From NCBI GenBank assembly GCA_963733195.1, contig CAVTCR010000059.1:1-64000 (forward strand): a DNA stretch of 64,000 bases, written 5' to 3'. Positions within the stretch are counted from its first letter, which is position 1. Every line of letters begins with the position of its first letter. Of the stretch, positions 2,884 through 64,000 are shown piece after piece. The stretch comes from an uncultured delta proteobacterium. GTDB taxonomy: Bacteria; Desulfobacterota; Binatia; Bin18. The notes beneath the pieces are model-generated. The model searched no databases and was not told where the DNA came from. It saw nothing but the letters and a program-made list of their open reading frames with translations. A program made the position numbers and the translations under genes.

Positions 2884-3724
2884 AAATGCACTGGACGGCT
2901 TCGTCGCGCCTGCCTTCTTGCCAGAGTTTGCGAAATCCTTGCATATCCTCGCCAAAGCCGTAGCGGGTGAACATATTCACATAGGAATCAACAAATCCAT
3001 ACGAGGACAGTTCGCGTTTGTACGCTTGGGCAGCAGTTTGTACATCATCAGTGACACAGCAGCGGACATACATGGCAAAATCGATAGTATTGGGATCACG
3101 CCCAGCTTTGCGTGCACCGTTCTGTACTTCAGCAATCATTGGGCCGATGGCTTCTGGTGGTGAGTAGTTGAACAACACACCATCCGCAAGTTCGCCAGCG
3201 AGCCGGAACATTGGTGGATTCAACGCGGCGATGTAGATCGGTACTGGTTTGTCTTTAGGCAGTGAGAGCCCCAACTGGAAGCCTTTGGAGCGATAATACT
3301 TTCCCTCAAAGTTGGTGCGTTCGCCATTCAGCACTTGCCTCATAACGGTAATCGCTTCACGCATAGCCGGGACAGGCCGTGGATACGGCACTCCATGCCA
3401 ACGTTCAGCAATAATCGGACTGCCAACGCCAAGGCCGATTATCGCCCGGCCTTCAGAGAGTGCATGAATTGAGGCAAAACTCATCGCCGTCATCACTGGA
3501 GTTCGTGAAGACAAGGCAATCACCGCCGTCCCAAGCTGCACGCGTGACGTAACGGTGGCGTAGGTTGCCAGCACTGTCAGCGCATCGTAGCCACTGACTT
3601 CTGCAGTCCACAGCGAGCGATATCTTAGTTGTTCCGCCTCTTTGGCTAACTCGATGCTTTTACGAAAACCAATACTCTCCCGCACTGGGAGTGCTAAACC
3701 AAGACCGGCTTGCATGATAGACAT
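2884..3724 (-). pseudogene. LLM-class flavin/F420-dependent oxidoreductase, interrupted near its C-terminus by the intron
   Basis: LLM motifs WTAE, QLGTAV, GRAIIGLG and PIYIAALNPPMFRLAGELADG. After AVQCI the frame runs into intron antisense sequence. Confidence 0.85.
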
Positions 3725-25105: not shown

Positions 25106-25347
25106 TACTGCACCTTCTTACCATACAGATAGTGATCAAGATTGATCGAGAGATCCGCGGGAGCCTCGGATTCGTACCCTTCCATCTGAAAGACTGCATC
25201 TTGGGTAACATCAAATGGCTCTTCGCTCTCCGGTAATTGCACGATCCAATCATGAATGAGGGCTTGGATTGATTTGCCAGTACGTTTGGCGGCTTGCTCT
25301 AATCGCTGATAATGAACCTCTGCCAATTGGATCGTAACTGTCGTCAT
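25105..25347 (-). CDS. Putative antitoxin
   Basis: RHH-like N-terminus and DLSINLDHYLYG C-terminus. Its ATG overlaps the cyclase gene stop (ATGA). Confidence 0.75.
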   Translation of the reverse strand: MTTVTIQLAEVHYQRLEQAAKRTGKSIQALIHDWIVQLPESEEPFDVTQDAVFQMEGYESEAPADLSINLDHYLYGKKVQ

Positions 25348-28300
25348 GTTGATGCTCCCTTCGTACGATGCTTCAAATCTTCCAACAACACCTTCGCCTC
25401 TTGCAAGTCCTTCGTGTCAAACCCCTCAGTGAACCAGTTGTAAACCTCTGATAACATCTGGTGAGCTTCGTTGAGCCTGATGCCTGGTACGTGTTGCGTG
25501 GTACGTGATGCGGACTGCGTTGCTTGCTGTTGTCGTAGTCGTACCAGGCTCATCGTTGCACGTAGTTCGAGTGATTTAGCTTGCTGCTTGCGCGCTATTT
25601 CAATAGCCTTCAAAAAATACTCTTCCGCTTCCTCTTCGACTTTAGACTTTGAACCTTGGACTTTGGACTGTTGAAGCGTAAGCATTCCTTTCAGCCGATA
25701 CAGCTCCGCCTCGTAAAACCGCTCCCCGGTTTTATCGATCACAGCCAGTGCTTCGGCCAGCGCGCTGAGCCCTTCCTCCGCTTGTCTTGCTTTCCCGTAT
25801 GCCTCGGCTAGTAGAGCAAGAAAGTACGACCGTGAATAGCTCTGCCCCTGTGGCCTGGTAGGCGGCCAGGCCTGGCGTATCTGGGTAATTCCCTCTTCTC
25901 TCTGTCCCTGCTCGGCGAGCGCCCAGCCCCGCAAGACAGCCCCATGCCGCTAAAAGAGTGGAAATCCCTGTTCGCTCGAGAGCGTAATCACTGCCTCCGC
26001 CCGCTCTTGGGTCTAGTGCTCTCTCCCGGCGGAACTGATGAGACACGGCAGCAAAACATAGGGCAAAAGCCAAGCTGAAGGGATGAGACAGCTCCTGGGC
26101 CAGGGTAAGCGCCTCATGGCTCTTCTTGAGGCCTGGTCTGGATAGCCAAGAAGCCACAGGGCCCTGGCTGCCATGGAAGCAGGCTCACCCCGGGGTCCTG
26201 TCCGTAAAGGAAAGCATGGGAGTGGTGCGCTGGGGGTCGTAGAGGGTAAGCCTTGCTCCAGATGTTCTTGGGCTAGCGCGAACTCTCCCAAGATGGAACA
26301 AGATACTTCCCAGCGCCAAGTGGGCCTCCATGAGAAGAGCCGGGTCTTGCTCCTTCTGGGCCAGGCCGAGGAGTTGCTCCCCCAGCTCGCGCGCCGTCTG
26401 GAACTCGCCCCGCACATGATAAAATGCCACAATCCCCATAGCACCGGGAAGAGCTGAGGGGTCTCACCCACCTGCTGGCACAGCTCCCGGGCCCGGGTGT
26501 AGACTCGCTCCACTTCCGGAGCGGCAAAGCCTTTGGTGGCCATGAGCGGCGCGCCCAGGGTAGATTTGTAAGTGCGAGTTCTTGCTGGGCGCGCTCGGGG
26601 GTATCCGGCAAAGTTTTGAGCAATCTAAGGCAGTCAGTCAAATGCGTGATCGCTTCCTCATTGGCCGAGCGCTGTACGGCCTGTTGTCCCGCCAAGCTGC
26701 AGATAGTCGATCGCTTTCTGCGTGTTCCCACTGCGACTGTAGTGATAGGCTAACTCGCTGTAATGGTCGTCAAGGCGAGAACGGTACACCTCTTCCATCG
26801 CTTGCGCGGTACGCTCATGCAAAACTTTACGCCGTTCCATCAGTACCGAGTTGTACGCTACTTCTTGCGTCAGTGCATGCTTGAAGATGTACTCTACATC
26901 GGGGAAAGCGGGTTGCTCGTAGACAAACTCTGCTGCTTGTAAGCGTGCGAGTAAGCGGTGCAGGTCGGCTTCTGGTTGGGTGACGACTTTGCTGCAGCAG
27001 GCTCGCCGCAAACTCGCGCCCGATCACTGCCAGGGTTTGGAGTAAGGCTTTCTCTTCTGCTGGCAGGCGATCCATGCGGCGGTCAGCACGCCTTGCACGG
27101 TGGTGGGGAGACGGAGGTCAGCATACCGGTGGGCGGTGCCCACCCTACGCGGATCGGTCAACACTCCTTGTTCGCGTAACTCCTGCACGATCTCTTCCAT
27201 GAAGAAGGGGTTGCCTTCGGTCTTGTCGAGGATGAGCTGTCGTAGGGGCACAGCATGCTGCGTCCCTACATCGCCCAAGTAGCGCCGTCAACATCTCCTC
27301 TGCTTGTTCTCTTCCCAACGGATCAAGTCGGAGCTGCGAGAAGTAGGTCTTGCCACTCCAGTTGTGTTGATACTCAGGCCGGTAATTCACCAGCAAAAGG
27401 ATGCGGGTGGTCGCTACACTCTCACTCAAAAGTTGTAGGAATGCCTGGGTCTCGTTGTCTAACCAGTGCAAGTCCTCAAAAATGATCAGTAGCGGCTGAT
27501 TGCGACTCTCACGTAAAAGTAGCCGTTTGATCGCGTCGAGAATCCGTTGCCGTCGAATCTGGCCGTCCATCTGCTGTAACGGGGAGGTAGGCTCAGCAAT
27601 TCCCAACAAGAAAAATAGATAGGGCAGAGTGTCTTCTAATCCCCGATCCAGCGTTAAGACTTTGCCGGTAATCTTCTCTCGGCGTCGGCGTTCGTCATCC
27701 TGGGTTGTCAGTTGGAAATAGTTCTTGAGCAAATCAATCAATGGCAAATAGGGATAGGCTTTTCCATGTGAAACTGAGAAGGTCTCTAACCGCAAGAGTA
27801 GGGGCGTATTGCAATACGCCCCTACAAATTCATGAAACAACCGCGACTTGCCGACTCCCGGTTCACCCATCACCGCTGCGATTTGTCCGTGCCCGGCCTT
27901 GGCCTGTTCCCAGACATGCTGTAACTGCTCAAGTTCACTCTGTCGCCCAATAAACCGCGCGAGCCCGCGTCGCACGGACAATTGTAGCTTGGTGCGTAAC
28001 GGCCCGACGCCCTCGACCTCATAGATATTGAGCGGCTCAGTGAACCCTTTGACCTGTGCTTGTCCTAACGACTTGAACGCGAAATAGCCTTCTGTGAGTT
28101 TGTAGGTCTGTTCGCTGACCAGAATCGAGCCTGGAGTGGCTAAACTCTCCATCCGTGAGGCTAGGTTGGTCGATTGGCCCACTGGTACGTAGTCGGTATG
28201 CAGATCATCCTTACGAATCGAGCGCAGTACTACTTCGCCGGTGTTGATGCCCACGCGAATCTGTACGTTCACGCCCTTTTCGCGCCGCAACTGCTCAGCT

Positions 28301-28935
28301 CGTTTGCGATTCTCCTCTTGCATCAGCAGCGCCGCATACAGTGCGCGTTGGGGATGATCCTCGTGGGCAATGGGCGCGCCGAACAGCGCGAAGATACCAT
28401 CGCCTAGCGCTTGCGCGACATAGCCTTCATAGCGATGTACCGCATCCATCATCAGTTGCAAGGTAGGATCGATAATAGTCCGTGCTTCTTCGGGGTCGAG
28501 ATCTGCTATGAGATCCGTCGAGCCTTTGATGTCAGCAAACAGTGCAGTGATGGTTTTGCGTTCACCATCCACATTGCCTCGCGCTTCCATCGCTTCGCGC
28601 TCGGCTTGAATCCGTTCCGCCAAGTGCGCAGGCGTGTAGCTGACCGGCTTAGGGTCTGGCGTCTGAGCCTTTTGACTTTGGACCTTGGTCTCTGGGTCTT
28701 GGACCTGTGTTGACCCTGGATTCTGGACGCTAGACGCTAGACTGTCCCTGCTCGTCCAAACTAGAAATCGTCCGTCTTCATCCGCAGCGATCCGTTTGGC
28801 GCCAATGAGTTCTTCCTTGAGATCTTCTATATACTCGTCATCCAGAGCAAAGCGTCGCTTTAAGCCGCGATAGGAGACGCGCTGCTCACGTTGCAGCAGC
28901 TCTTGGACCTGCGCGAGGATTTCATCAAAGGTCAT
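25344..28935 (-). CDS. Class III adenylate/guanylate cyclase + AAA (STAND) ATPase + TPR protein (multiple frameshifts)
   Basis: ITALFADIKGST, GDGIFALFGAP, RVGINTG, GEPGVGKSRL, FEDLHWLD, TEGNPFF, FKHALTQEVAY, and C-terminal ELRATMSL...[17 protein letters not shown]. Confidence 0.9.
27128..27148 (-). repeat. GTAG-type REP inside the CDS
   Basis: GTAGGGTGGGCACCGCCCACC, translated as VGTAH. Confidence 0.7.
27242..27269. repeat. GTAG-type REP palindrome inside the CDS
   Basis: GTAGGGGCACAGCATGCTGCGTCCCTAC, translated as VGTQHAVPL. Confidence 0.75.
27798..27825. repeat. Perfect 28-bp GTAG-type REP palindrome inside the CDS
   Basis: GTAGGGGCGTATTGCAATACGCCCCTAC, translated as VGAYCNTPL. Confidence 0.85.
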
Positions 28936-54430: not shown

Positions 54431-56426
54431 TTACCCATACGCCGCCTCCGCGACATCCACCATATCCGAGAGGATGCGTAACATTTCAAAATCTTTCGGC
54501 GTGTACACACGAGCAACACCAGCTTTGCGCAACACTGCCGCATCATCTTCAGGAATAATCCCGCCAATGACAACCGGAACATCACTCAGTCCTTCAGCTT
54601 TGAGGCCAGCGATCACTTCAGGAACAAGACGCAAATGTGACCCAGAAAGAATGCTCAAGCCAATCAGATGCACTCCTTCATCTCGTGCACTGTTCACAAT
54701 CTGATCTGGAGTGAGGCGGATTCCCTCATAGACGACTTCCATTCCAGCATCGCGGCACCACACGGCAATCTGCTCGGCGCCGTTAGAGTGACCGTCGAGG
54801 CCAGGTTTACCAATCAATACTTTGAGTGGTCTCCCCAGTACATCGGCTGACTTGCGCACTCGAGCGCGTAGGGTTTCCAAACGTTCACCTCCCTGCCCGT
54901 TCGCGCTTCGTGTGACAACTGCAGCCCCCGATGCCTGTCGGCGCGCGGAATTCGCCAAACGCCGTACGTAACGTCTGCGCCCATTCACCAGTCGTGACTC
55001 CAGCATGCGCGCAACGAATCGACACCGGCATGATGTTATCGCCGTTGACGGCAGTGTCACGTAAGGCGGTCAATGCTGCCGTTACCTCAACTTGATTCCG
55101 CGACGCACGAAACGCATGTAGGCGGGCGAGTTGATCACGTTCTGCTTCTTCGTCCACTTTCAGAATGGCCGAGGAATCCCCAGTGTAGAGCGGGGACAGT
55201 GCAGTTTCAGTGAATTTGTTTACACCAACAACGGTTTGCTCACCGGCATTGATGCGTCGCACGCGGTCAGTGTGGCTGGCCACGAGTTGTTCCTTGACGT
55301 AGTCCAACGCTGCAATAACACCGCCAAATTCTTGCACGCGTTCGACCTCAGCCCAGGCTGCACGTTTAATCTCGTTAGTCTTGGCTTCGATAACCTTACT
55401 ACCCTCGAAAATATCCTCGTATTCAAGAACATCCGTTTCATACGCCAAAATCTGTTGGATACGTAAACTCCACTGCTGATCCCACGGACGTGGAAGGCCA
55501 AGCGCTTCATTCCAGGTGGGAAGTTGTAGAGCACGACAACGTGCATCTTTGCTTAGCGTTACTCCCAACGCTTCGAGCACAATACGTGGAACGTTATTCT
55601 CCGGTTGCGCTTCGGTGAGACCGAGTGAATTGACCTGCACCCCGTAACGACACCGACGCAGTTTGGGGTCAGTGATACCGTAGCGAACACGCGTGAGTTC
55701 GTCCCACAATTGCCCAAACGCGCGCAGCTTGCAGATCTCTTCAATGAAGCGGAGACCGGAGTTGACGAAAAAGCTGATCCGTCCAACGGCTTCGGCAAAC
55801 TCGGCCGTACTTAATTTGCCGGAAGCGCGTACCGTATCGAGAACCGCGATCGCCGTGCAGAGCGTGTAGGCGATTTCTTGGACTGGCGTGGCGCCGGCTT
55901 CTTGCAAATGGTAGGAGCACACGTTGATAGGATTCCATTTGGGAACGTGGGCAACAGTGTAGATAATTGTATCGCGTGTCAGACGTAAGCTTGGTGCGGG
56001 TGGAAAGATATAGGTGCCACGCGAAAGGTATTCTTTGACGATGTCGTTCTGCGTCGTGCCTTGCAGGGCTTTGGCATCAACCCCCTGACGTTCCGCTGCA
56101 GCTATATAAAGTGCTAATAACCACGCCGCCGTGCCATTGATGGTCATCGACGTGTTCATTTTATCCAGCGGGATACCGACAAAGAGTGCTTCCATATCGC
56201 CGATGTGGCCAATCGGAACCCCAACTTTGCCGACTTCGCCGCGTGCGAGTTCGTGGTCGCTGTCGTAGCCGGTCTGTGTCGGGAGATCGAACGCCACAGA
56301 CAAACCCGTCTGCCCTTTGCTCAAGTTGAGGCGATACAGCTCGTTACTCGCCTTGGCGGTGGAATGACCAGAGTAGGTGCGCATGACCCAGGGATTGTCG
56401 TTTTTCATCTTTCGTTCCTCGCTCAA
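54431..56426 (-). CDS. ecm: Ethylmalonyl-CoA mutase (MeaA), one frameshift at ~54930
   Basis: PWVMRTYSGHS (His, as in Ecm rather than Mcm), GLSVAFDLPTQTGYD, QPENN, B12-binding KPGLDGHSNGAEQ. Confidence 0.9.
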
Positions 56427-56436
56427 TATCGAAAGC

Positions 56437-57276
56437 CTATCGCCGCGAGATCAATTGCAGCAACACTCCATGTGTATGTTTCGGGCTGATGAAAGCCAAC
56501 TCGCTGCCGTCAGGAGCTTTGGCGACGTTTGCTTTGATACCTTTTTCTCCTAGGGCTGCGATCGCACCAGGCAGATAGTCGACATCAAGAGATAGCAAGT
56601 ACATGCCTTCGCCGTTCTTGGTGAGGAACTGCGCAATCGGACTGTTGTCGCCGAGTGGAGAGACGATCTCAATCTTGGCATCACTAATCGGCAAGAACGT
56701 ATTGCGAATACCAAGCGCAGGAACTTCACCCGCTGGTTCACGCGAGAGACCAAAGTTCTTCTGATAGGTTGCCACTGCAGCTTCGAGATCTTTCACAGCA
56801 ATGACCACATGATCAAGCCGTTTGGTCGTGAACCGACGGTTACGCGCTTCGCCAAGAAGAGAGGCGTGCTCGCTATGATCGACCGGTTGCGCGTACTCGA
56901 TCAACGCACCACAACATGCCTGCGGATGAAAAAACGCAATAATTCCAGCTAGGCCTAGGCGCGGCTTCTGGTCGATCACTCTGATGCCTTTGTCTATGGT
57001 CGCTTGGAGTTCGGCTTCAACGTTATCCGTTTCGAAACAGATATGATGCAACCCGCCGCCTTTCTTCTCCAGAAATTTCGCGACCCCGGAGTCTGCAGTG
57101 ATCGGTTCCAGTAGTTCGATCTCACTCTCGCCAACTGGAAGCAATGCAGCTTTCACACCTTGATCCTGAACCGTTGCCATCTTGCCTAATGGCAGGCCAA
57201 GTGTGTCTTTGTAAAATTCAAAGGCTTCTTCGAGTTTACGAACGACGATACCGACATGGTGAATTTTTTTAAGCAT
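56437..57276 (-). CDS. (Ethyl/methyl)malonyl-CoA epimerase with two tandem VOC domains
   Basis: IHHVGI...EIELLEP...GLHHICF...LIE, followed by a second LDHVVIAV...KIEIVSP...GVLLQL domain. Confidence 0.85.
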   Translation of the reverse strand: MLKKIHHVGIVVRKLEEAFEFYKDTLGLPLGKMATVQDQGVKAALLPVGESEIELLEPITADSGVAKFLEKKGGGLHHICFETDNVEAELQATIDKGIRVIDQKPRLGLAGIIAFFHPQACCGALIEYAQPVDHSEHASLLGEARNRRFTTKRLDHVVIAVKDLEAAVATYQKNFGLSREPAGEVPALGIRNTFLPISDAKIEIVSPLGDNSPIAQFLTKNGEGMYLLSLDVDYLPGAIAALGEKGIKANVAKAPDGSELAFISPKHTHGVLLQLISRR

Positions 57277-57366
57277 GAGAGTTCCTCAACAGTGAAGAAT
57301 TAAGAGTGAAGAGTTGAAGGACAATGCGAAATTTTTTCATTCTTCATTTAACACTTTTTAGTGGCT

Positions 57367-58405
57367 TTAGCCGACCCGCTTCATCTGCTCCAAAATATCG
57401 TAGCCTGTGATCCCTTTGCTCTTCGCCGCTTGTTCGGCGAGGTAGGCAGAGCTGACCTTTTCCGCTTGCACTGCTTTGGCCAGGTCCATCAGGGCGATTT
57501 TGATCGTGGCTTCGTCGATCATTTCGCCGGTCTCTGGATCAGGCATCGAGCCACCACCCTTCTGGTGGTAGAGGTCGAGAACACGAGTCGCATACTGAAT
57601 CTGCTTATCAGTGGGCGTGTAGCACTCGTTGGCAATCTTGCGCTTGCTGAGGATGAATCACCCAGGTGCCATCCATGCCCAGGTTGGCTGCACCGATGTT
57701 TTTATCGCGCAAACCGGCTTCGATCTCAGCAACTTTCTCTTTGGAATCTTCCTTGCGCCATAACGGGAGGTACACGTTATCAACCGCATGCAGTCCTGCG
57801 GCTTTGGCGGCGATGACTACTGCTTGCTTGGCATATAAGAAATTAATGTTCTGATTCTTCACGACTTCGCGGATGCCAAGAGTCGCAGCGAAATCGGCGA
57901 TACCAAAGATCAGTCCAGCCATGCGATCTGAAGCAGTAGCGATATCGTAGGCTTTCACCACAGCTTGGGGAATCTCAATCAATGACTCAAGTTGCAGACG
58001 AGTTTTCCAGCCAGCTTTCTTTTCCAGGCTATCAAGCAGTGAGGAGACATACTTGATGTCATCCGGACCATGAATCTTTGGTAGGATCAAGCCATGAAAC
58101 TTATCCGGTGCGCCGGTGACGATGGCTTCGATGTCACCAAGGAAAAACTCTGAGCGGACATTGTTCGGTCGGACGGTAATAACTTTTTTGCCGAAATCGA
58201 GAGTGTTCAGGGCCTCAACAACACATTGTCGGCTCTTTGGTCCTTTGAACTCGTACGGGCAGGCGTCTTCAAAATCCATCATCACGTGGTCAACTGGCGA
58301 CTTCACCGGGTCCGCAGCATTTTGGTGCAACTTCATGCTGTGACCTGGGTAGGTCATCTCAGTGCGGGGAATTACAAACCGCTTGCCTTTATCGAGTACA
58401 AACAT
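57367..58405 (-). CDS. CitE-family CoA-ester lyase (probable malyl-/beta-methylmalyl-CoA lyase), frameshifted
   Basis: MDFEDAC, VRPN, LPK, LIE, FGIADF, WVIHP.Q; ethylmalonyl-CoA pathway context. Confidence 0.8.
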
Positions 58406-58673
58406 GGAATCCTCCTGAAATAACTGTCAGTTATCAGTGGTCAGTTTTCAGCATGCAATACGGATGAGATAGTCTCCCTCGTTATTGACTGAGTGCTGAA
58501 AACTGCTGACTGAGTGCTGTCTTCTAGCAGATTGCGCCACCCTAGCCCAGGGCGGCGGGGAATGTTAGAACCCTTCCCCTAACCTAGTATACTCAAGCGA
58601 CGGATTCCTTTTTCTCCTATCTTCCCAAAAGTAGGGAGAAAATAGGACCGACGAATACACGAGGAGATACTGC

Positions 58674-60309
58674 ATGACCGATATACTCCGCCAAACCACC
58701 GCCATTGTTGACGCCTTGCAGAAACTGCGAGATGAAGCGTTGCACTACGGGCGCAGAATCACTGACAATGGCAAAGGTATCGATGATCATCAAGTCCACA
58801 CTGAGCGGCTTGCCTATCTGGCGACTGAAGTGGAAGCCGCTCGGGCGTTAGTGGCGTATGCCACCGGCGCCCAAGCCACGGTGACTCAGAAGCCAGTGAG
58901 ATGGCCTCGGGTTTGCTGCCGAGATCGGTCAGAAACATCTGAACCAAGCGGATACCCATCTGACCGACTTTGGTTTTCCTGAATCAGTGCTTGCCGAGAC
59001 GCTTGGTCGTTCCGATGTGAAGGCGGCGATGCGCGTGGGTGCGCATGAGAATCGCTTTCGCAGTATCGGCCGGTCGGTGATTGCGAGTCGTGGGGTGAAT
59101 AACTCTTGGCTGGAAAGTGACATCGCGGCTATGACGCGCGACTCGGTACGGCAATTCGCCCGCGCTGAGGTGTCACAAGTCGCCGAGCGTGTGCACCGTC
59201 ATGACGAATTGATCCCCGAAAATATCATTAAGCAAATGGCAGAGCTGGGCTTCTTTGGTATGTCGGTTCCTGAGGAATATGGCGGCGGCGGTATGGGCAA
59301 CCTGGCGATGATTATTACGACTGAAGAACTGTCGTGTGCATCACTAGGTGTTGCTGGCAGTTTGATTACCCGTCCCGAAATTCTTACCAAAGCTCTCCTC
59401 CGTGGTGGAACAGAAACGCAGAAGAAGAAATGGCTACCGCCGATTGCAGCAGGAGAATTGATGGTTGCGATCTCGGTGACTGAGCCAGATACCGGTTCAG
59501 ATGTTGCCTCAGTCAAATGTCGAGCCGAAGCGGCAACTGTCGGTGGCAAACAAGGGTACGTCATCAACGGAGCCAAAGCGTGGTGTACGTTTGCTGGGCG
59601 GGCAAACATCATTGCTATGCTAACGCGCACGAATCCTGATGCCAAATCCGGTGCGCGTGGACTCTCGCTGTTTATTGTCGAGAAGGATCAATTCCCTGGC
59701 CATACGTTTGAGATGCGTCAACCCACTGGTGGCGTACTAGGTGGAACCGCGATTCCTACGCTGGGATATCGTGGGATGCATTCGTATATCATCAATTGTG
59801 ATAATTATTTTGTTCCCGCAGAAAATTTGGTTGGTGAAGAAGGCGGGCTCAACAAAGGCTTCTATTTGCAGATGGCGGGATTCGCCGCAGGTCGGTTACA
59901 GACCGGCGGTCGCGCCACTGGTCTCGCGCAGGCTGCACTAGAAGTGACAGCGACCTACGCCAACGAACGCAAACAATTCGGAACTGCGCTGGGAGATTTC
60001 CAACTGACTCAATACAAACTCGGGCGCATGGCAACCTACATCGCCGCCGCACGACAGCTCTCCTACGCGGCGGCCCCAGCCATGGATAAAGACGAGGCCG
60101 CTGCAGTCATTGCCGCAATGGCGAAGTTACTGGCGTGCGACGTTGCCGTGTCAGTGACGCAAGAAGGGCAACTGATCCACGGCGGTTGGGGCTACGGTGA
60201 AGAGTACGCAATCTCGCGTTACGTCGTTGATGCCCTCGTGCTGCCGATTTTTGAAGGAGTAAAGCCGATTTTGGAACTGAAAGTGATTGGGCGGACGCTG
60301 TTGGCGTAA
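58674..60309 (+). CDS. Acyl-CoA dehydrogenase, probable (2S)-methylsuccinyl-CoA dehydrogenase (frameshifted)
   Basis: N-terminal extension, GSLITRPEI, TEPDTGSD, LGYRGM, GRLQT, QLIHGG.GY, IFEG; pathway context. Confidence 0.82.
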
Positions 60310-60393
60310 GACCGAAAGCTGTAGACTTCAGGTCTTAGGTGAGAGGGGAGATTCAGTCTTTCCTTGTAGCCGTAGATGATGTGCTCTGTATCG

Positions 60394-60431
60394 CGTTTCG
60401 TCATTCCCGCGCAGGCGGGAATGACGAAACG
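60394..60431. repeat. Perfect REP-derived hairpin between convergent genes (possible bidirectional terminator)
   Basis: CGTTTCGTCATTCCCGC-GCAG-GCGGGAATGACGAAACG, 17-bp stem. Confidence 0.65.
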
Positions 60432-60541
60432 GGAAGATATCGCCATTCTCGCAAAAGCGAGAAACTAGATTTCCGTACTAGGGGGAGATAATGAGGCCTA
60501 GGCTCTAAGGATGGGCCCCTACAGCCTATAGCTTTCAACCT

Positions 60542-61600
60542 TCACGCATAGTGACTCCTCCGTTTCACCGCCATCTCCCGCTCTAAATAAAAGATCTCCA
60601 TCTTCTCCCACGCATCAGCTTTTTTGATGAACTTATGACCACGTAGGATGGTCGCAATGATACCGAGGTCTGGCCGACCAGGGTAATCACGTTTGCCAGT
60701 GATCTCAGTTGCTGCAAAGACCGTATCACCAACAAAAACCGGGCCGGTGTGACGACCAGTGATATAGCAAGTATCTCCGAGTGCGTTGTCGCCAACATCT
60801 GGACACGACAGTCCCAGGCAGAGATTAAACGGAATGCCACCATACACAATCAACTGTCCGCCAATGTATTTCTGCGGATTCTGGTCGACCAGGTACTGAT
60901 TGCTATGGACCTGTGAGGTGTTATCAAGCATTGCCGTCCATTCCATATGTGCCGTGGTCACAGTACGCCCACGTGAGTGCTCAATGACATCCCCAACGTT
61001 GAAGTCTTCAAAGTAGGTGTCGGAATTGGTGAGATGGGCAAGCTCCTGATACTTACGGTTTTTGTCGTAGGCAGGAACGTGGAGGTCGCACGGGATGGTG
61101 GGAATCTCAGACTGTGAGGCCGCCTCGACTTTTGCCTCTTGCTTGTCTTTCCAAATCTGAACTTTCCGCTGTAAGGTGAGAACGACTTCACCATTCTGAT
61201 TGCGGCCAGTCGTTTGCACATGCACCACGCCACGGTCAGGTTCTTTGGACGATGGTTGCACACCAACGATCGTGGTTTCAACCTCGATGGTATCGCCAAT
61301 GTACACCGGCGCGCCGAAGCGCATGTCACGGTACTCCAGGTTTGCGCGGGCATTTTCAGAGATATCCTCGACGCTCTGACTGAACACGATGTTCATCACT
61401 AGTCCTGGAGGAGCAATGAGTCCTTTGAACCCGTAGCGCTGTGCATAGCGCAGGTTCTTACTCAACGGGTTGGTGGTCATACCAAATTCAGTGAAGGCAT
61501 TAAACAAACCTTCGGTGACAGTCTTACCAACCTTGTGGCGAAAGAGCTGACCAACACGAAAGTCTTCAAGAAAATTGCCACGTTTCTTGCGAATGATCAC
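60542..61600 (-). CDS. Double hot-dog MaoC hydratase, probable mesaconyl-CoA hydratase
   Basis: GNFLEDFRVGQ, SVEDIS.NA.ANLEY, YFEDF..GD.I.H, YGG, H.GP.F.GDT; pathway context. Confidence 0.82.
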   Translation of the reverse strand: MIIRKKRGNFLEDFRVGQLFRHKVGKTVTEGLFNAFTEFGMTTNPLSKNLRYAQRYGFKGLIAPPGLVMNIVFSQSVEDISENARANLEYRDMRFGAPVYIGDTIEVETTIVGVQPSSKEPDRGVVHVQTTGRNQNGEVVLTLQRKVQIWKDKQEAKVEAASQSEIPTIPCDLHVPAYDKNRKYQELAHLTNSDTYFEDFNVGDVIEHSRGRTVTTAHMEWTAMLDNTSQVHSNQYLVDQNPQKYIGGQLIVYGGIPFNLCLGLSCPDVGDNALGDTCYITGRHTGPVFVGDTVFAATEITGKRDYPGRPDLGIIATILRGHKFIKKADAWEKMEIFYLEREMAVKRRSHYA

Positions 61601-61683
61601 ACGATGCTCCCTCTTGCAGGATTTAGCGGGAAAGTAAGGTACAGGAGTTCACCAGACAGGACAAGCGAATGGTTCATACATTA

Positions 61684-61822
61684 CTAATGGTGCAATTCTT
61701 CGATCAGTGCCTTCGCCTCTTGCAGGTCTTTCGTATCAAACCCTTCCGTGAACCAGTTGTAGATAGGGACAACGTGTTACGTGCCGCGTGCCTTAAGGTT
61801 ACTACAGGCGCGCGAGGCTCAT
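61684..61822 (-). pseudogene. Orphan, decayed 3' end (about 45 codons) of a cyclase/AAA/TPR gene
   Basis: MSLARL** ... HAARNTLS / [26 protein letters not shown]. Core 61705-61761 matches 62377-62433 at 55/57 nt. Confidence 0.85.
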
Positions 61823-62061
61823 CGGTGCGAAGCTTCCAGGATGGTCACCCCTACCAAATTCTTCCCCTTGTAATCGAAAATGATCCCATCCTCTCCCATT
61901 TCGCTGTGCGTTGAGTTCACCTCGTCAACGAAATGGACGTACAGCACATCGGCCTCCTCATCATAATCCAACCACATCCGACGCTTTGGCAGTTGTACGA
62001 GGTGGGAAACAGCTTTAAGCAGATGTCCCAGACTTTTCTTTGCTAGCGCTTCTTTGGCCAT
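61819..62061 (-). CDS. DUF2283-domain putative antitoxin
   Basis: LDYDEEADVLYV.F...S.HSEM..DGII.DY....LVG.TIL.AS. Confidence 0.85.
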   Translation of the reverse strand: MAKEALAKKSLGHLLKAVSHLVQLPKRRMWLDYDEEADVLYVHFVDEVNSTHSEMGEDGIIFDYKGKNLVGVTILEASHR

Positions 62062-62349
62062 ACGATTGTTCTTTTGTTCACCTTACGGGCGATGAAGGCG
62101 GTAATGATGAATCGCGTCAGTTCGACTCACTTCTCGATAGACCACATGGAGATATTCTTGTTTCGCAAGAGTCAGGACGGCAACGGAAGCTCCAGCGTAT
62201 CCTCGCAGAATCCAGGTCGGACGTTCGACGGTATCGAGTACGCTTTCATAGTAGGGTTCCATATAGGGTTTGATTCGCTGACAATATGCTCCCATCTCTC
62301 TGGTGTGAGACGAATATGGTACGCCATTGACCGAGTATACGACATCCAC
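62030..62349 (-). CDS. Putative RelE-like toxin partner of DUF2283 (frameshifted)
   Basis: MDVVYSVNGV.IRLTPERWEHI...E..VL.TVE.P..I...YLHVVYRE....FIITAF in stitched frames. Confidence 0.7.
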
Positions 62350-62352
62350 ACC

Positions 62353-64000
62353 TCAGCCCTCTGCAAGTTCCTCTAACAGTGCCTTCGCCTCTTGCAAGTC
62401 TTTCGTATCAAACCCTTCGGTGAACCAGTTGTACACCTCAGACAACAGCTTGTGAGCTTCGGCTTCTTGCCTTGTTGTTGCCACAGCCGAGCCAGACTCG
62501 TCGCGGCGCGGAGTTCCCAGGATTTGGCCTGCTGCTTCCGGGCAATGTCGATGGCTTTCAGAAAACACTCTTCGGCTTCGGCTTTGGGTCGGGAGTCAGG
62601 GTCGGGGTCAGTAACTTGAAACTGCTCTGACCAACTGACGACTAGCTGTGGAGCGTTAGCTCGCCCTTCAGCCGATACAGTTCCGCCTCGTACGAAACGC
62701 TCCCCAGTTTTGTCCACTACGTCAGCGCCTCGGCCAGCACGTTCAGTCCTTCCTCTACCTGCCCCATTTCCTCATACGCCTCGGCCAGAAGGGCAAGAAA
62801 ACATGGCCGATCCAGCTCTGCCCCCATGGCCCGCAAGGCGGCCAGGCCCTGGCTGTATCTGGCAATCCCTTCTTCTCCCTGTCCTTGCTCAGCCAGAGCC
62901 CAGCCCCGCTCGATAGTTCCCTACGCTAACCAATGCGGAATCCATGCTCGGTTGAGAGCGTAATCGTTGCCTCTGCCCGCTCTTGGACGCGCTGCTCCTC
63001 TCGGCGGAAAAGATGGAGAACGGCAGCACAAGCCGAGGGCATTGCCAGCTAAAGGGGTGAGACAGCTCTCGAGCCAAGGTCAGAGCCTCATGGCTTCTCT
63101 TCAGGGCCTGGTCTGGATAGCCAAGAACCACAGAGCCAAGATAAAGGACAGGCAATCTACCCCGGGGTCAGCCCGTAGAGAAAGGCATGAGGCCACGGTG
63201 CTGCTGGGGGTCATAGAGAGCAACGCCTTGCTCAAGGTGCTGGCGAGCCGGGGCAACTCTCCAAGGTAGATCAAGGTGTGCCCCAATGCGTAATGGGCCA
63301 TCGAGAGGAGAGTCGGATCTTGTACATTCTGGGCCAGACTCAGAGCTGCTCCGCCATCTCCCGCGCCGTCTGGTACTCTCCTCGTAGTTAGATAAAATAG
63401 CCACAGTCCCAACAACACCGGGAAGAGCTGAGGGGTCTCGCCCACCTGCTGGCACAGCTCTCGCGCCCGGGCATAGGCCCTTCCCACCTCTGGGGCGGCA
63501 TAGCCCTTGGTGGCCATCAGTGGCACCGCCCAGGGCAAGTTGCAGCGTGAGTTCTTGCTGGGCGCGCTCGGGAGTATCCGGCAGGGTCTTGAGCAGCTCC
63601 AGCCCTTTGGTGAGGTGGCTGATTGCTTCCAGATTGGCCGAGCGCTGGATGGCTCTCTGGCCGGCCTTCTGCCAGTAGGGAATGGCCTGCTCGATGAGAC
63701 CGGCCTCGGTGTAGTGATGGGCCAGCAGTTCAGGTTGGGTCTCTTTGGTCTCGGAAAGCGTTCTCCTCCAATACCTGGGCAATCTGTTGGTGATACTGTT
63801 GCCGGGTGCTTTTGAGCAAGGATTGATAGGCGGTGTCCTGGATCAGTGCATGCTTGAAGAAGTAGCGTGTTTGCTGCACCACGCCCGCGCTGATAGAGAA
63901 TTCGGCTTCCACGAGTTTCGCAAAGCCTGCTGTAAATCGGTTTCGCTGAGTGGCGCCACGGCCTGCAGCAGTTCATAGGAAAACTCTCGTCCCAGCGTCG
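62353..64000 (-). CDS. Second cyclase/AAA/TPR (STAND-type) protein, C-terminal part (frameshifted; 5' part beyond window)
   Basis: [80 protein letters not shown]. Confidence 0.9.

Follow-up and report, generated by a model that had tools for sequence, protein, structure and literature searches.

Why would a bacterial genome keep the last codons of a very large gene by themselves, behind a small gene pair that resembles a toxin-antitoxin module? The question is raised by a locus in a 64,000-nucleotide (nt) stretch of an uncultured delta proteobacterium (GenBank assembly GCA_963733195.1, contig CAVTCR010000059.1, positions 1 to 64,000). We refer to this whole stretch as the window and to its contig as C59. 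On the minus strand, the end of a gene of the class III cyclase / AAA_16 / TPR family is followed by a toxin-like open reading frame (ORF), a DUF2283 gene, a second, orphan copy of the family gene end and the gene mch; this order, described in an earlier note on the same DNA, was confirmed in the sequence. Most likely, the locus marks a scar, left by deletion or displacement, where family genes and small cargo genes form a plastic array. The features are as follows.

62353..64000, minus strand: 3' part of the class III cyclase / AAA_16 / TPR family gene (stop at 62353), which runs on beyond the window to about C59:65576
62368..62433, minus strand: attached copy of the conserved end segment, a direct repeat and one of 184 genomic end matches
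62083..62366, minus strand: toxin-like ORF, partner of the DUF2283 gene, in three frame pieces (three-frame translation and tblastn)
61819..62061, minus strand: DUF2283 antitoxin-like gene, 80 amino acids (aa), intact (Pfam PF10049, E 2.7e-12, profile positions 1-49 of 49)
61684..61822, minus strand: orphan remnant of a family gene end, 139 nt (repeat and family-consensus comparison)
60542..61600, minus strand: mch (mesaconyl-CoA hydratase), intact (Pfam MC_hydratase, E 7.9e-20)

The repeat finder returned a single direct repeat, 61696-61761 against 62368-62433 (66 nt, 92% identity, 5 mismatches), in which the longest perfect run shared by the two copies is 21 nt. Within it, the 57-nt cores at 61705-61761 and 62377-62433 differ at 2 positions, exactly as had been claimed. 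The repeat is far beyond chance, since tblastn finds members of the segment's family at 184 places in the genome. The second copy of the terminal segment is therefore real, but its homology is interrupted: the orphan consists of 19 nt of family consensus, about 40 nt of diverged sequence with in-frame stops, the 66-nt core and a stop, and chaining assigned it just 72 nt of contiguous family homology. The TGA of the DUF2283 gene falls within the family consensus ...GCGATGAGCCTCGCG..., so that the orphan meets the DUF2283 gene a few bases at most from where the DUF2283 domain ends. The ATGA overlap of antitoxin stop and orphan, reported at 61819-61822, is present, and the orphan is separated from mch by a spacer of 84 nt. 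No inverted repeats of 14 nt or longer occur in 61000-64000, hence no attC-like sites of the integron type were found there. The region has no promoter-like site and one terminator-like site, which lies inside mch; it contains no known RNA, its sole Rfam match being at chance level.

Members of the family are proteins of about 1200 aa that combine Guanylate_cyc (class III cyclase), AAA_16 (STAND-like ATPase) and TPR domains, as seen in two intact relatives (L077; Guanylate_cyc E 2.8e-22 and 2.2e-22, AAA_16 4.3e-20 and 9.1e-21, TPR_12 up to 2.2e-12). The window gene matches an intact member at C59:62362-65576 (query 109-1208, tblastn), with its frame broken. When a full-length member was used as the query, 193 loci amounting to about 476 kb of the 6.95-Mb genome were found, and the 32-residue end peptide matched 184 places (tblastn). 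The end segment is present in 21 of the 41 genomes searched (this genome is counted among them), and in several genera each genome has tens of candidates. It is the best-conserved DNA of the gene, with 84-95% identity between genera against 73-82% for mch. Its synonymous codons, counted over 168 copies, depart strongly from genomic usage: Leu19 is TTG in 75% (17% genome-wide) and Gln20 is CAA in 93% (49% genome-wide), while Phe10 is TTC in 80% and Phe14, four positions away, is TTT in 89%. These position-specific codons suggest a constraint at the DNA or RNA level, or gene conversion. Conservation of the end at the DNA level exceeds the needs of the protein, and we regard this result as robust. 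Homology among the ends stops a few codons short of the stop codon, as expected for coding constraint, and neither terminal repeats nor a transposase is associated with the family. In a rock metagenome (run X4), summed contig depth was 277 at 61670-61786 and 1991 at 62372-62488, against 3-20 for neighbouring DNA, so the end segment is abundant in many organisms of that sample.

Orphan ends are common, as the earlier note had anticipated. For 178 ends in this genome, the tblastn pieces lying upstream were chained, which gave the following lengths of contiguous family homology.

More than 3 kb: 105 ends
2.4-3 kb: 16 ends
1.2-2.4 kb: 9 ends
0.6-1.2 kb: 7 ends
0.3-0.6 kb: 4 ends
0.3 kb or less: 37 ends

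The last class, with contiguous family homology of at most 300 nt, comprises the short orphans. Ten of the 37 are paired, that is, another family end lies no more than 3.5 kb upstream on the same strand, and 27 stand alone. At least nine cases of end, cargo and orphan were found in two other genera (G010 and G016). The arrangement thus occurs in three genera; both its recurrence and the excess of short 3' remnants are robust. The cargo of the individual pairs is listed below, with prefixes marking the other two genomes.

C59 (the window): toxin-like ORF and DUF2283 gene
C71: pair homologous to that of the window, in reverse orientation
C29: DUF2281-like gene and PemK/MazF gene
C84: PIN-like pair with a broken frame, judged by eye
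C65: TumE pair and alcohol dehydrogenase
C11: SDR and GST
C81: F420H2-dependent reductase
C17: AAA_14-DUF4143
C6 and C76: unknown ORFs
G016:C33: DUF433 and DUF5615
G016:C7: DUF2281-like gene and PIN-like gene
G010:C20 and G010:C113: UPF0175 and DUF3368
G010:C48: Zeta-toxin-like kinase
G010:C72: PIN pair
G016:C79: luciferase-like oxygenase
G016:C12 and G016:C90: two ORFs without a family match

Toxin-antitoxin-like cargo is found in about 11 of these 19 pairs from three genomes, a count that includes calls made by eye where Pfam was silent. Among the 107 ORFs taken from the 19 pairs, similarity was limited to one distant pair (32-37% protein identity); apart from it, no cargo recurs at a second site.

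We tentatively read the orphan as the remnant of a second copy of the family gene, left behind as a passive deletion scar. Family genes of this genome and its relatives are often arranged head to tail, with small unrelated genes, very often toxin-antitoxin pairs, closely packed between them. The window would hold one unit of such an array, in which the family gene is followed by the toxin and DUF2283 genes and then by the last ~46 codons of another family gene; the rest of that gene, with its promoter, N-terminus and body, would have been lost by deletion. We infer that selection on the antitoxin placed the breakpoint: the deletion would have ended right at the antitoxin stop codon, and a longer one, cutting into the antitoxin gene, would leave the toxin unchecked and would not persist. 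No dedicated exchange machinery would be needed.

Several lines of evidence support this reading. One comes from complete arrays that carry the same kind of cargo, packed just as tightly. At C1:14258-14882, a gene for a 128-aa toxin-like protein and a DUF2283 gene lie between two full-length family genes, and they share 51% and 58% protein identity with the pair at C71, which is bracketed by an end and an orphan. The earlier note had named a full second paralogue in relatives as the mark of simple deletion of a tandem gene, which would refute its own integration model; such a paralogue is present in paralogous arrays such as this one, but not at the orthologous site. The complete tandem copies in C1 enclose a PIN pair, a PIN_3 gene and the toxin and DUF2283 pair, and those elsewhere enclose PIN (C55), DUF433 (C68), CopG/BrnT (G010:C65) and AAA_14-DUF4143 (G010:C19). 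Deletion derivatives exist as well. In G010:C72, the orphan behind the PIN pair is directly preceded by a fragment of a family N-terminus (query 7-27), and only N- plus C-terminal pieces are left at G010:C113, G010:C18, C65:104508-105033 and C62:272509-272954. Such mini-copies, among them those at L046 (1832-2133), L047 (406-992) and L056 (2549-3071), keep the first 20-96 and the last 70-100 codons, which shows that large internal deletions happen.

Comparison between genomes points in the same direction. A full gene with its cargo in G016:C12 corresponds to a 77-codon end with the same cargo in G024:C962 (87% nucleotide identity), and a full gene with the DUF433/DUF5615 pair in G016:C33 corresponds to a 22-codon end with the same pair in G011:C6 (74%). 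The latter locus (L083) carries two 22-codon end remnants, at 1850-1912 and 3195-3260, 1.3 kb apart, each followed by cargo: an AAA_14/DUF4143-like gene after the first and the DUF433 and DUF5615 genes after the second. Both remnants start just before a Trp codon, and the ~25 nt upstream of each look alike. The deletion reading also draws support from the different origins of an orphan and its neighbouring end. When ends were ranked by closeness to the orphan, the partner end in the window came 9th of 161, and the partners in eight other pairs ranked 1, 12, 48, 1, 99, 13, 59 and 1; one further pair gave no partner match, and C45 was left out as a real tandem partial gene. Local duplication of the two ends was accordingly rejected for most pairs, the partner rarely being the best match, and is possible at C71 and C65. 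The 27 short remnants without a family gene upstream and the recovery of both orphan junctions in independent contigs, described below, are likewise in keeping with a deletion scar.

A number of observations weigh against this reading. Remnant sizes are skewed in a way that random deletions do not predict: 37 of the 57 truncated ends have 300 nt or less, and the other 20 range from 300 to 2400 nt. Nor do such deletions predict the near-lack of 5' remnants in this genome, where downstream homology is as short as 300 nt or less for 4 of 82 N-terminal modules; these are two of the N- plus C-terminal mini-copies and two chain breaks, with no clean orphan among them. The asymmetry is weaker in relatives, where a crude open-frame count gave 16 of 71 ends in G016 and 20 of 83 in G010, and 5 of 51 N-termini in G016 and 11 of 39 in G010 (3 at contig edges). 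In most pairs the cargo sits within 20 nt of the orphan, which is tighter than chance breakpoints suggest. The idea that a closely linked downstream gene protects the remnants from loss found no support: a co-oriented ORF starts within 100 nt of 17 of the 37 remnants and of 73 of 121 full ends, while among the 600 controls the figure is 368; this test is weak, since an ORF of at least 60 aa is a loose criterion. No ancestor of the locus was found either: at 12 mch loci of relatives, the 1-7.9 kb retrieved from the upstream side lacks any family gene, toxin or DUF2283, and so they offer neither the empty nor the alternative cassette that the earlier note had proposed to look for. Finally, a passive scar accounts neither for 3' remnants outnumbering 5' remnants nor for the conservation of synonymous codons in the end.

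The main rival, which we consider unlikely, is C-terminal displacement. Here the family gene would once have ended 84 nt before mch; the 3' part of an incoming paralogue, together with a toxin-antitoxin pair, would have recombined homologously within the gene body, and an illegitimate join near the resident end would have pushed the resident's last codons downstream as the orphan. This would account for the position of the orphan at a border between variable and conserved DNA. Similarity to the 12 relatives' loci (blastn) begins at 61588-61604, that is, at mch, and in G016:C33 synteny with two congeners resumes ~40 nt past the orphan, so that at both loci the orphan falls exactly where conserved synteny begins. 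Displacement also fits the different origins of the two ends, predicts more 3' than 5' remnants, as seen, and is consistent with chains of two remnants with cargo between them in G011:C6 and in C17 and C65 of this genome. Such a mechanism, with a homologous anchor and an illegitimate join, has been proposed for Rhs genes and for type VI effector-immunity arrays of Vibrio cholerae (PMC5361080). Against it stand the 27 remnants without a family gene upstream and the N- plus C-terminal deletion derivatives, which it leaves unaccounted for; moreover, the illegitimate join would have to favour the last 300 nt strongly, and no donor or recipient pair was identified. The Campbell-type integration put forward in the earlier note, in which circles of end plus cargo integrate by single crossover at the ~180 ends as dispersed attachment sites, fares worse and appears improbable. 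What speaks for it is the recurrence of end, cargo and end (10 pairs here and at least nine in G010 and G016), the conservation of the end above that of mch, the unusual synonymous codons, which would fit gene conversion among ends, and the fact that any such structure could in principle loop out. However, no cargo is common to any two of the 19 pairs save the distant one, most orphans stand alone, and the same cargo lies between complete genes. The perfect identity of the window repeats does not exceed 21 nt, below the length usually needed for RecA-dependent exchange. Orphan boundaries vary: in 45 remnants the 5' limit falls anywhere from position 94 to position 280 of a 324-position model, a spread of ~190 nt, whereas the fixed crossover core of site-specific integration should give repeats of constant extent. 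No circle junction was seen either, at inadequate read depth.

In a broader form of the same idea, the conserved ends, with 30-180 copies per genome in several genera, might serve as homology sites for the capture, displacement and exchange of small gene sets, toxin-antitoxin pairs above all, behind family genes, which we regard as doubtful. The result would be a kind of integron-like cargo market that depends on general recombination and has no integrase, with the conserved end codons as a trace of constant gene conversion that keeps the sites compatible, and this too seems to us an improbable account. A site-specific recombinase that acts in trans on the end as an attachment site, as in integrons or 3'-end islands, is very improbable. 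Two indirect points would suit such an enzyme, namely how well the end is conserved as DNA and how tightly the cargo is packed, but none of the 13 flanking ORFs (C59 54.9-80.8 kb, Pfam) has a recombinase or transposase domain, in agreement with the earlier statement that no integrase is visible. The intI integrase was likewise absent from the 13 ORFs, the rest of the genome not having been searched for it. The lack of inverted repeats in 61000-64000 and the scatter of remnant boundaries, with no single crossover point, count against a recombinase as well, and the end of homology a few codons before the stop fits coding constraint instead.

Could the locus be an artefact, with paralogous ends wrongly joined? 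Misassembly was named in the earlier note as a possible undoing of the observation, and two features of the assembly invite the suspicion: family copies lie at many contig ends, and multi-copy genes contain many single-base indels. Nevertheless, we consider misassembly highly implausible. The junctions mch/orphan (61582-61732) and orphan/DUF2283 (61775-61925) are each contained in an independent 151-nt short-read contig, from two soil runs, with 2 differences and no gaps, and the in-frame stops of the orphan lie in the second of these intervals and are confirmed gap-free. A relative with ~90% identity keeps the DUF2283 gene, the toxin and the family end in the same order, and the same architecture is found in other assemblies. 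No public run covers the window at a useful depth, the best of them sharing a fraction of 0.09 of its words; alignment of four runs supported the junctions, but at this inadequate depth no clean circle or empty-site joint was seen. Joints such as 61764/62527 and 61756/62442 (13 letters between) are best read as paralogue ends that align in two pieces, joints at 85% likeness being ambiguous paralogue alignments. A contig of run X4 joins 62460 to 61804 with 23 letters between; it may come from a relative with an undecayed orphan behind DUF2283.

The state of the family genes themselves calls for caution. The family gene that precedes the toxin in the window does have its end there, as claimed, but the gene is split over many frames, in ORF pieces of 71-299 aa. 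Almost all of the ~150 long family copies are broken by single-base indels, in the window at 25344-28935 and 62353-64000, whereas most family ends in G010, G011 and G016 belong to open frames 1000-1240 aa long. Between the members of the closest paralogue pairs, at 91% and 89% nucleotide identity, there are 19 and 40 indel events, most of them single-base, and close family paralogues accumulate about one indel per 100-170 nt. Half or more of the mismatches of the closest pairs fall at third codon positions, which indicates that these copies diverged as working genes. Outside the family, the genome has 205 ORFs of at least 700 aa, and unique genes are intact. A second family, of ~20 copies of 2-2.5 kb (C5:4778-7361, C62:341948-356678, C70:44947-47332 and ~17 more), is also fragmented, while two-copy repeats are mostly intact. 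The frameshifts in family copies are probably consensus errors in multi-copy regions, and real mass pseudogenisation was judged less likely. For this reason neither the family gene nor the toxin should be called a pseudogene.

For the cargo pair of the window, sequence features suggest a putative type II toxin-antitoxin pair of a DUF2283 antitoxin-like gene and a toxin-like partner. The toxin-like ORF described earlier is present, although not as one frame. Three-frame translation against an intact 128-aa homologue (C1:14209-14592) shows that its frame is broken twice, and contigs of relatives have a one-base difference at 62114 and at 62273, positions that coincide with or adjoin the two frame changes. 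The stop of the ORF and the start of the DUF2283 gene overlap, the last frame piece ending inside that start. The window ORF has no Pfam match, and its C1 homologue matches DUF4258 with E 0.01 and 16.6 bits, the cut-off being 25. DUF2283 has 6 matches in the genome, the window gene among them. Another DUF2283 gene, at C5:56363-56572, has a 27-nt fragment of a family end (96% identity) 37 nt upstream.

A search of the full-text literature found no description of this arrangement, which shares features with several known systems. As in Rhs and type VI effector-immunity arrays, a conserved gene segment would provide the homology anchor, small genes including toxin/protector pairs would be added behind it, displaced 3' pieces pile up as orphans, and no recombinase is known for either (PMC5361080). 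In Rhs and contact-dependent inhibition (CDI) systems, however, it is the C-terminal domain of the large protein itself that varies, and an immunity gene comes next. At the present locus the extreme C-terminus (the last ~25 codons) is the conserved segment, and the cargo genes, which are separate and unrelated, lie beyond the stop, among them SDR, GST, F420-dependent reductase and luciferase-like oxygenase genes besides type II toxin-antitoxin pairs; orphan fragments downstream of the main gene are present, and a C-terminal toxin domain after a conserved motif is not. Integron arrays resemble the locus in having promoterless-looking small genes between short repeats, with toxin-antitoxin cassettes common, but here the 13 flanking ORFs include no integrase, there is no attC-like inverted repeat, and the repeats are paralogue coding sequence with variable boundaries. 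Islands and prophages can insert at the 3' end of a tRNA or protein gene, bringing with them a replacement for the end they displace. As in such islands, a direct repeat of a gene 3' end brackets the insert and the gene stays whole; in contrast to them, the insert is ~0.6 kb without an integrase, the repeats are 92% identical over 66 nt and repeat length varies by site. The copies with only the first 20-96 and last 70-100 codons recall internally deleted, non-autonomous derivatives of repeated genetic elements, a general concept, but the family is an ordinary signalling-type gene rather than an element with terminal repeats or a transposase.

One flank of the locus (54885-61600) contains an ethylmalonyl-CoA-type cluster with methylmalonyl-CoA mutase, a glyoxalase-fold epimerase-like gene, HpcH aldolase, acyl-CoA dehydrogenase and mch. 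The other (C59:66305-80845) encodes a histidine kinase and a sigma-54 activator as well as Omp85 and TamB, and thereby points to a diderm bacterium. A Chloroflexus-type organism, which mch might suggest, is disfavoured by the Omp85, TamB and sigma-54 activator genes.

We hold self-propagating exchange through the conserved ends to be improbable. If the orphans are only scars, the locus documents the co-organisation of a very large signalling-gene family and toxin-antitoxin pairs in plastic arrays, and it illustrates that orphan gene ends can mimic attachment sites. It also raises the question of whether the conserved ends of expanded families may act as recombination anchors that shape the gene content downstream of them.

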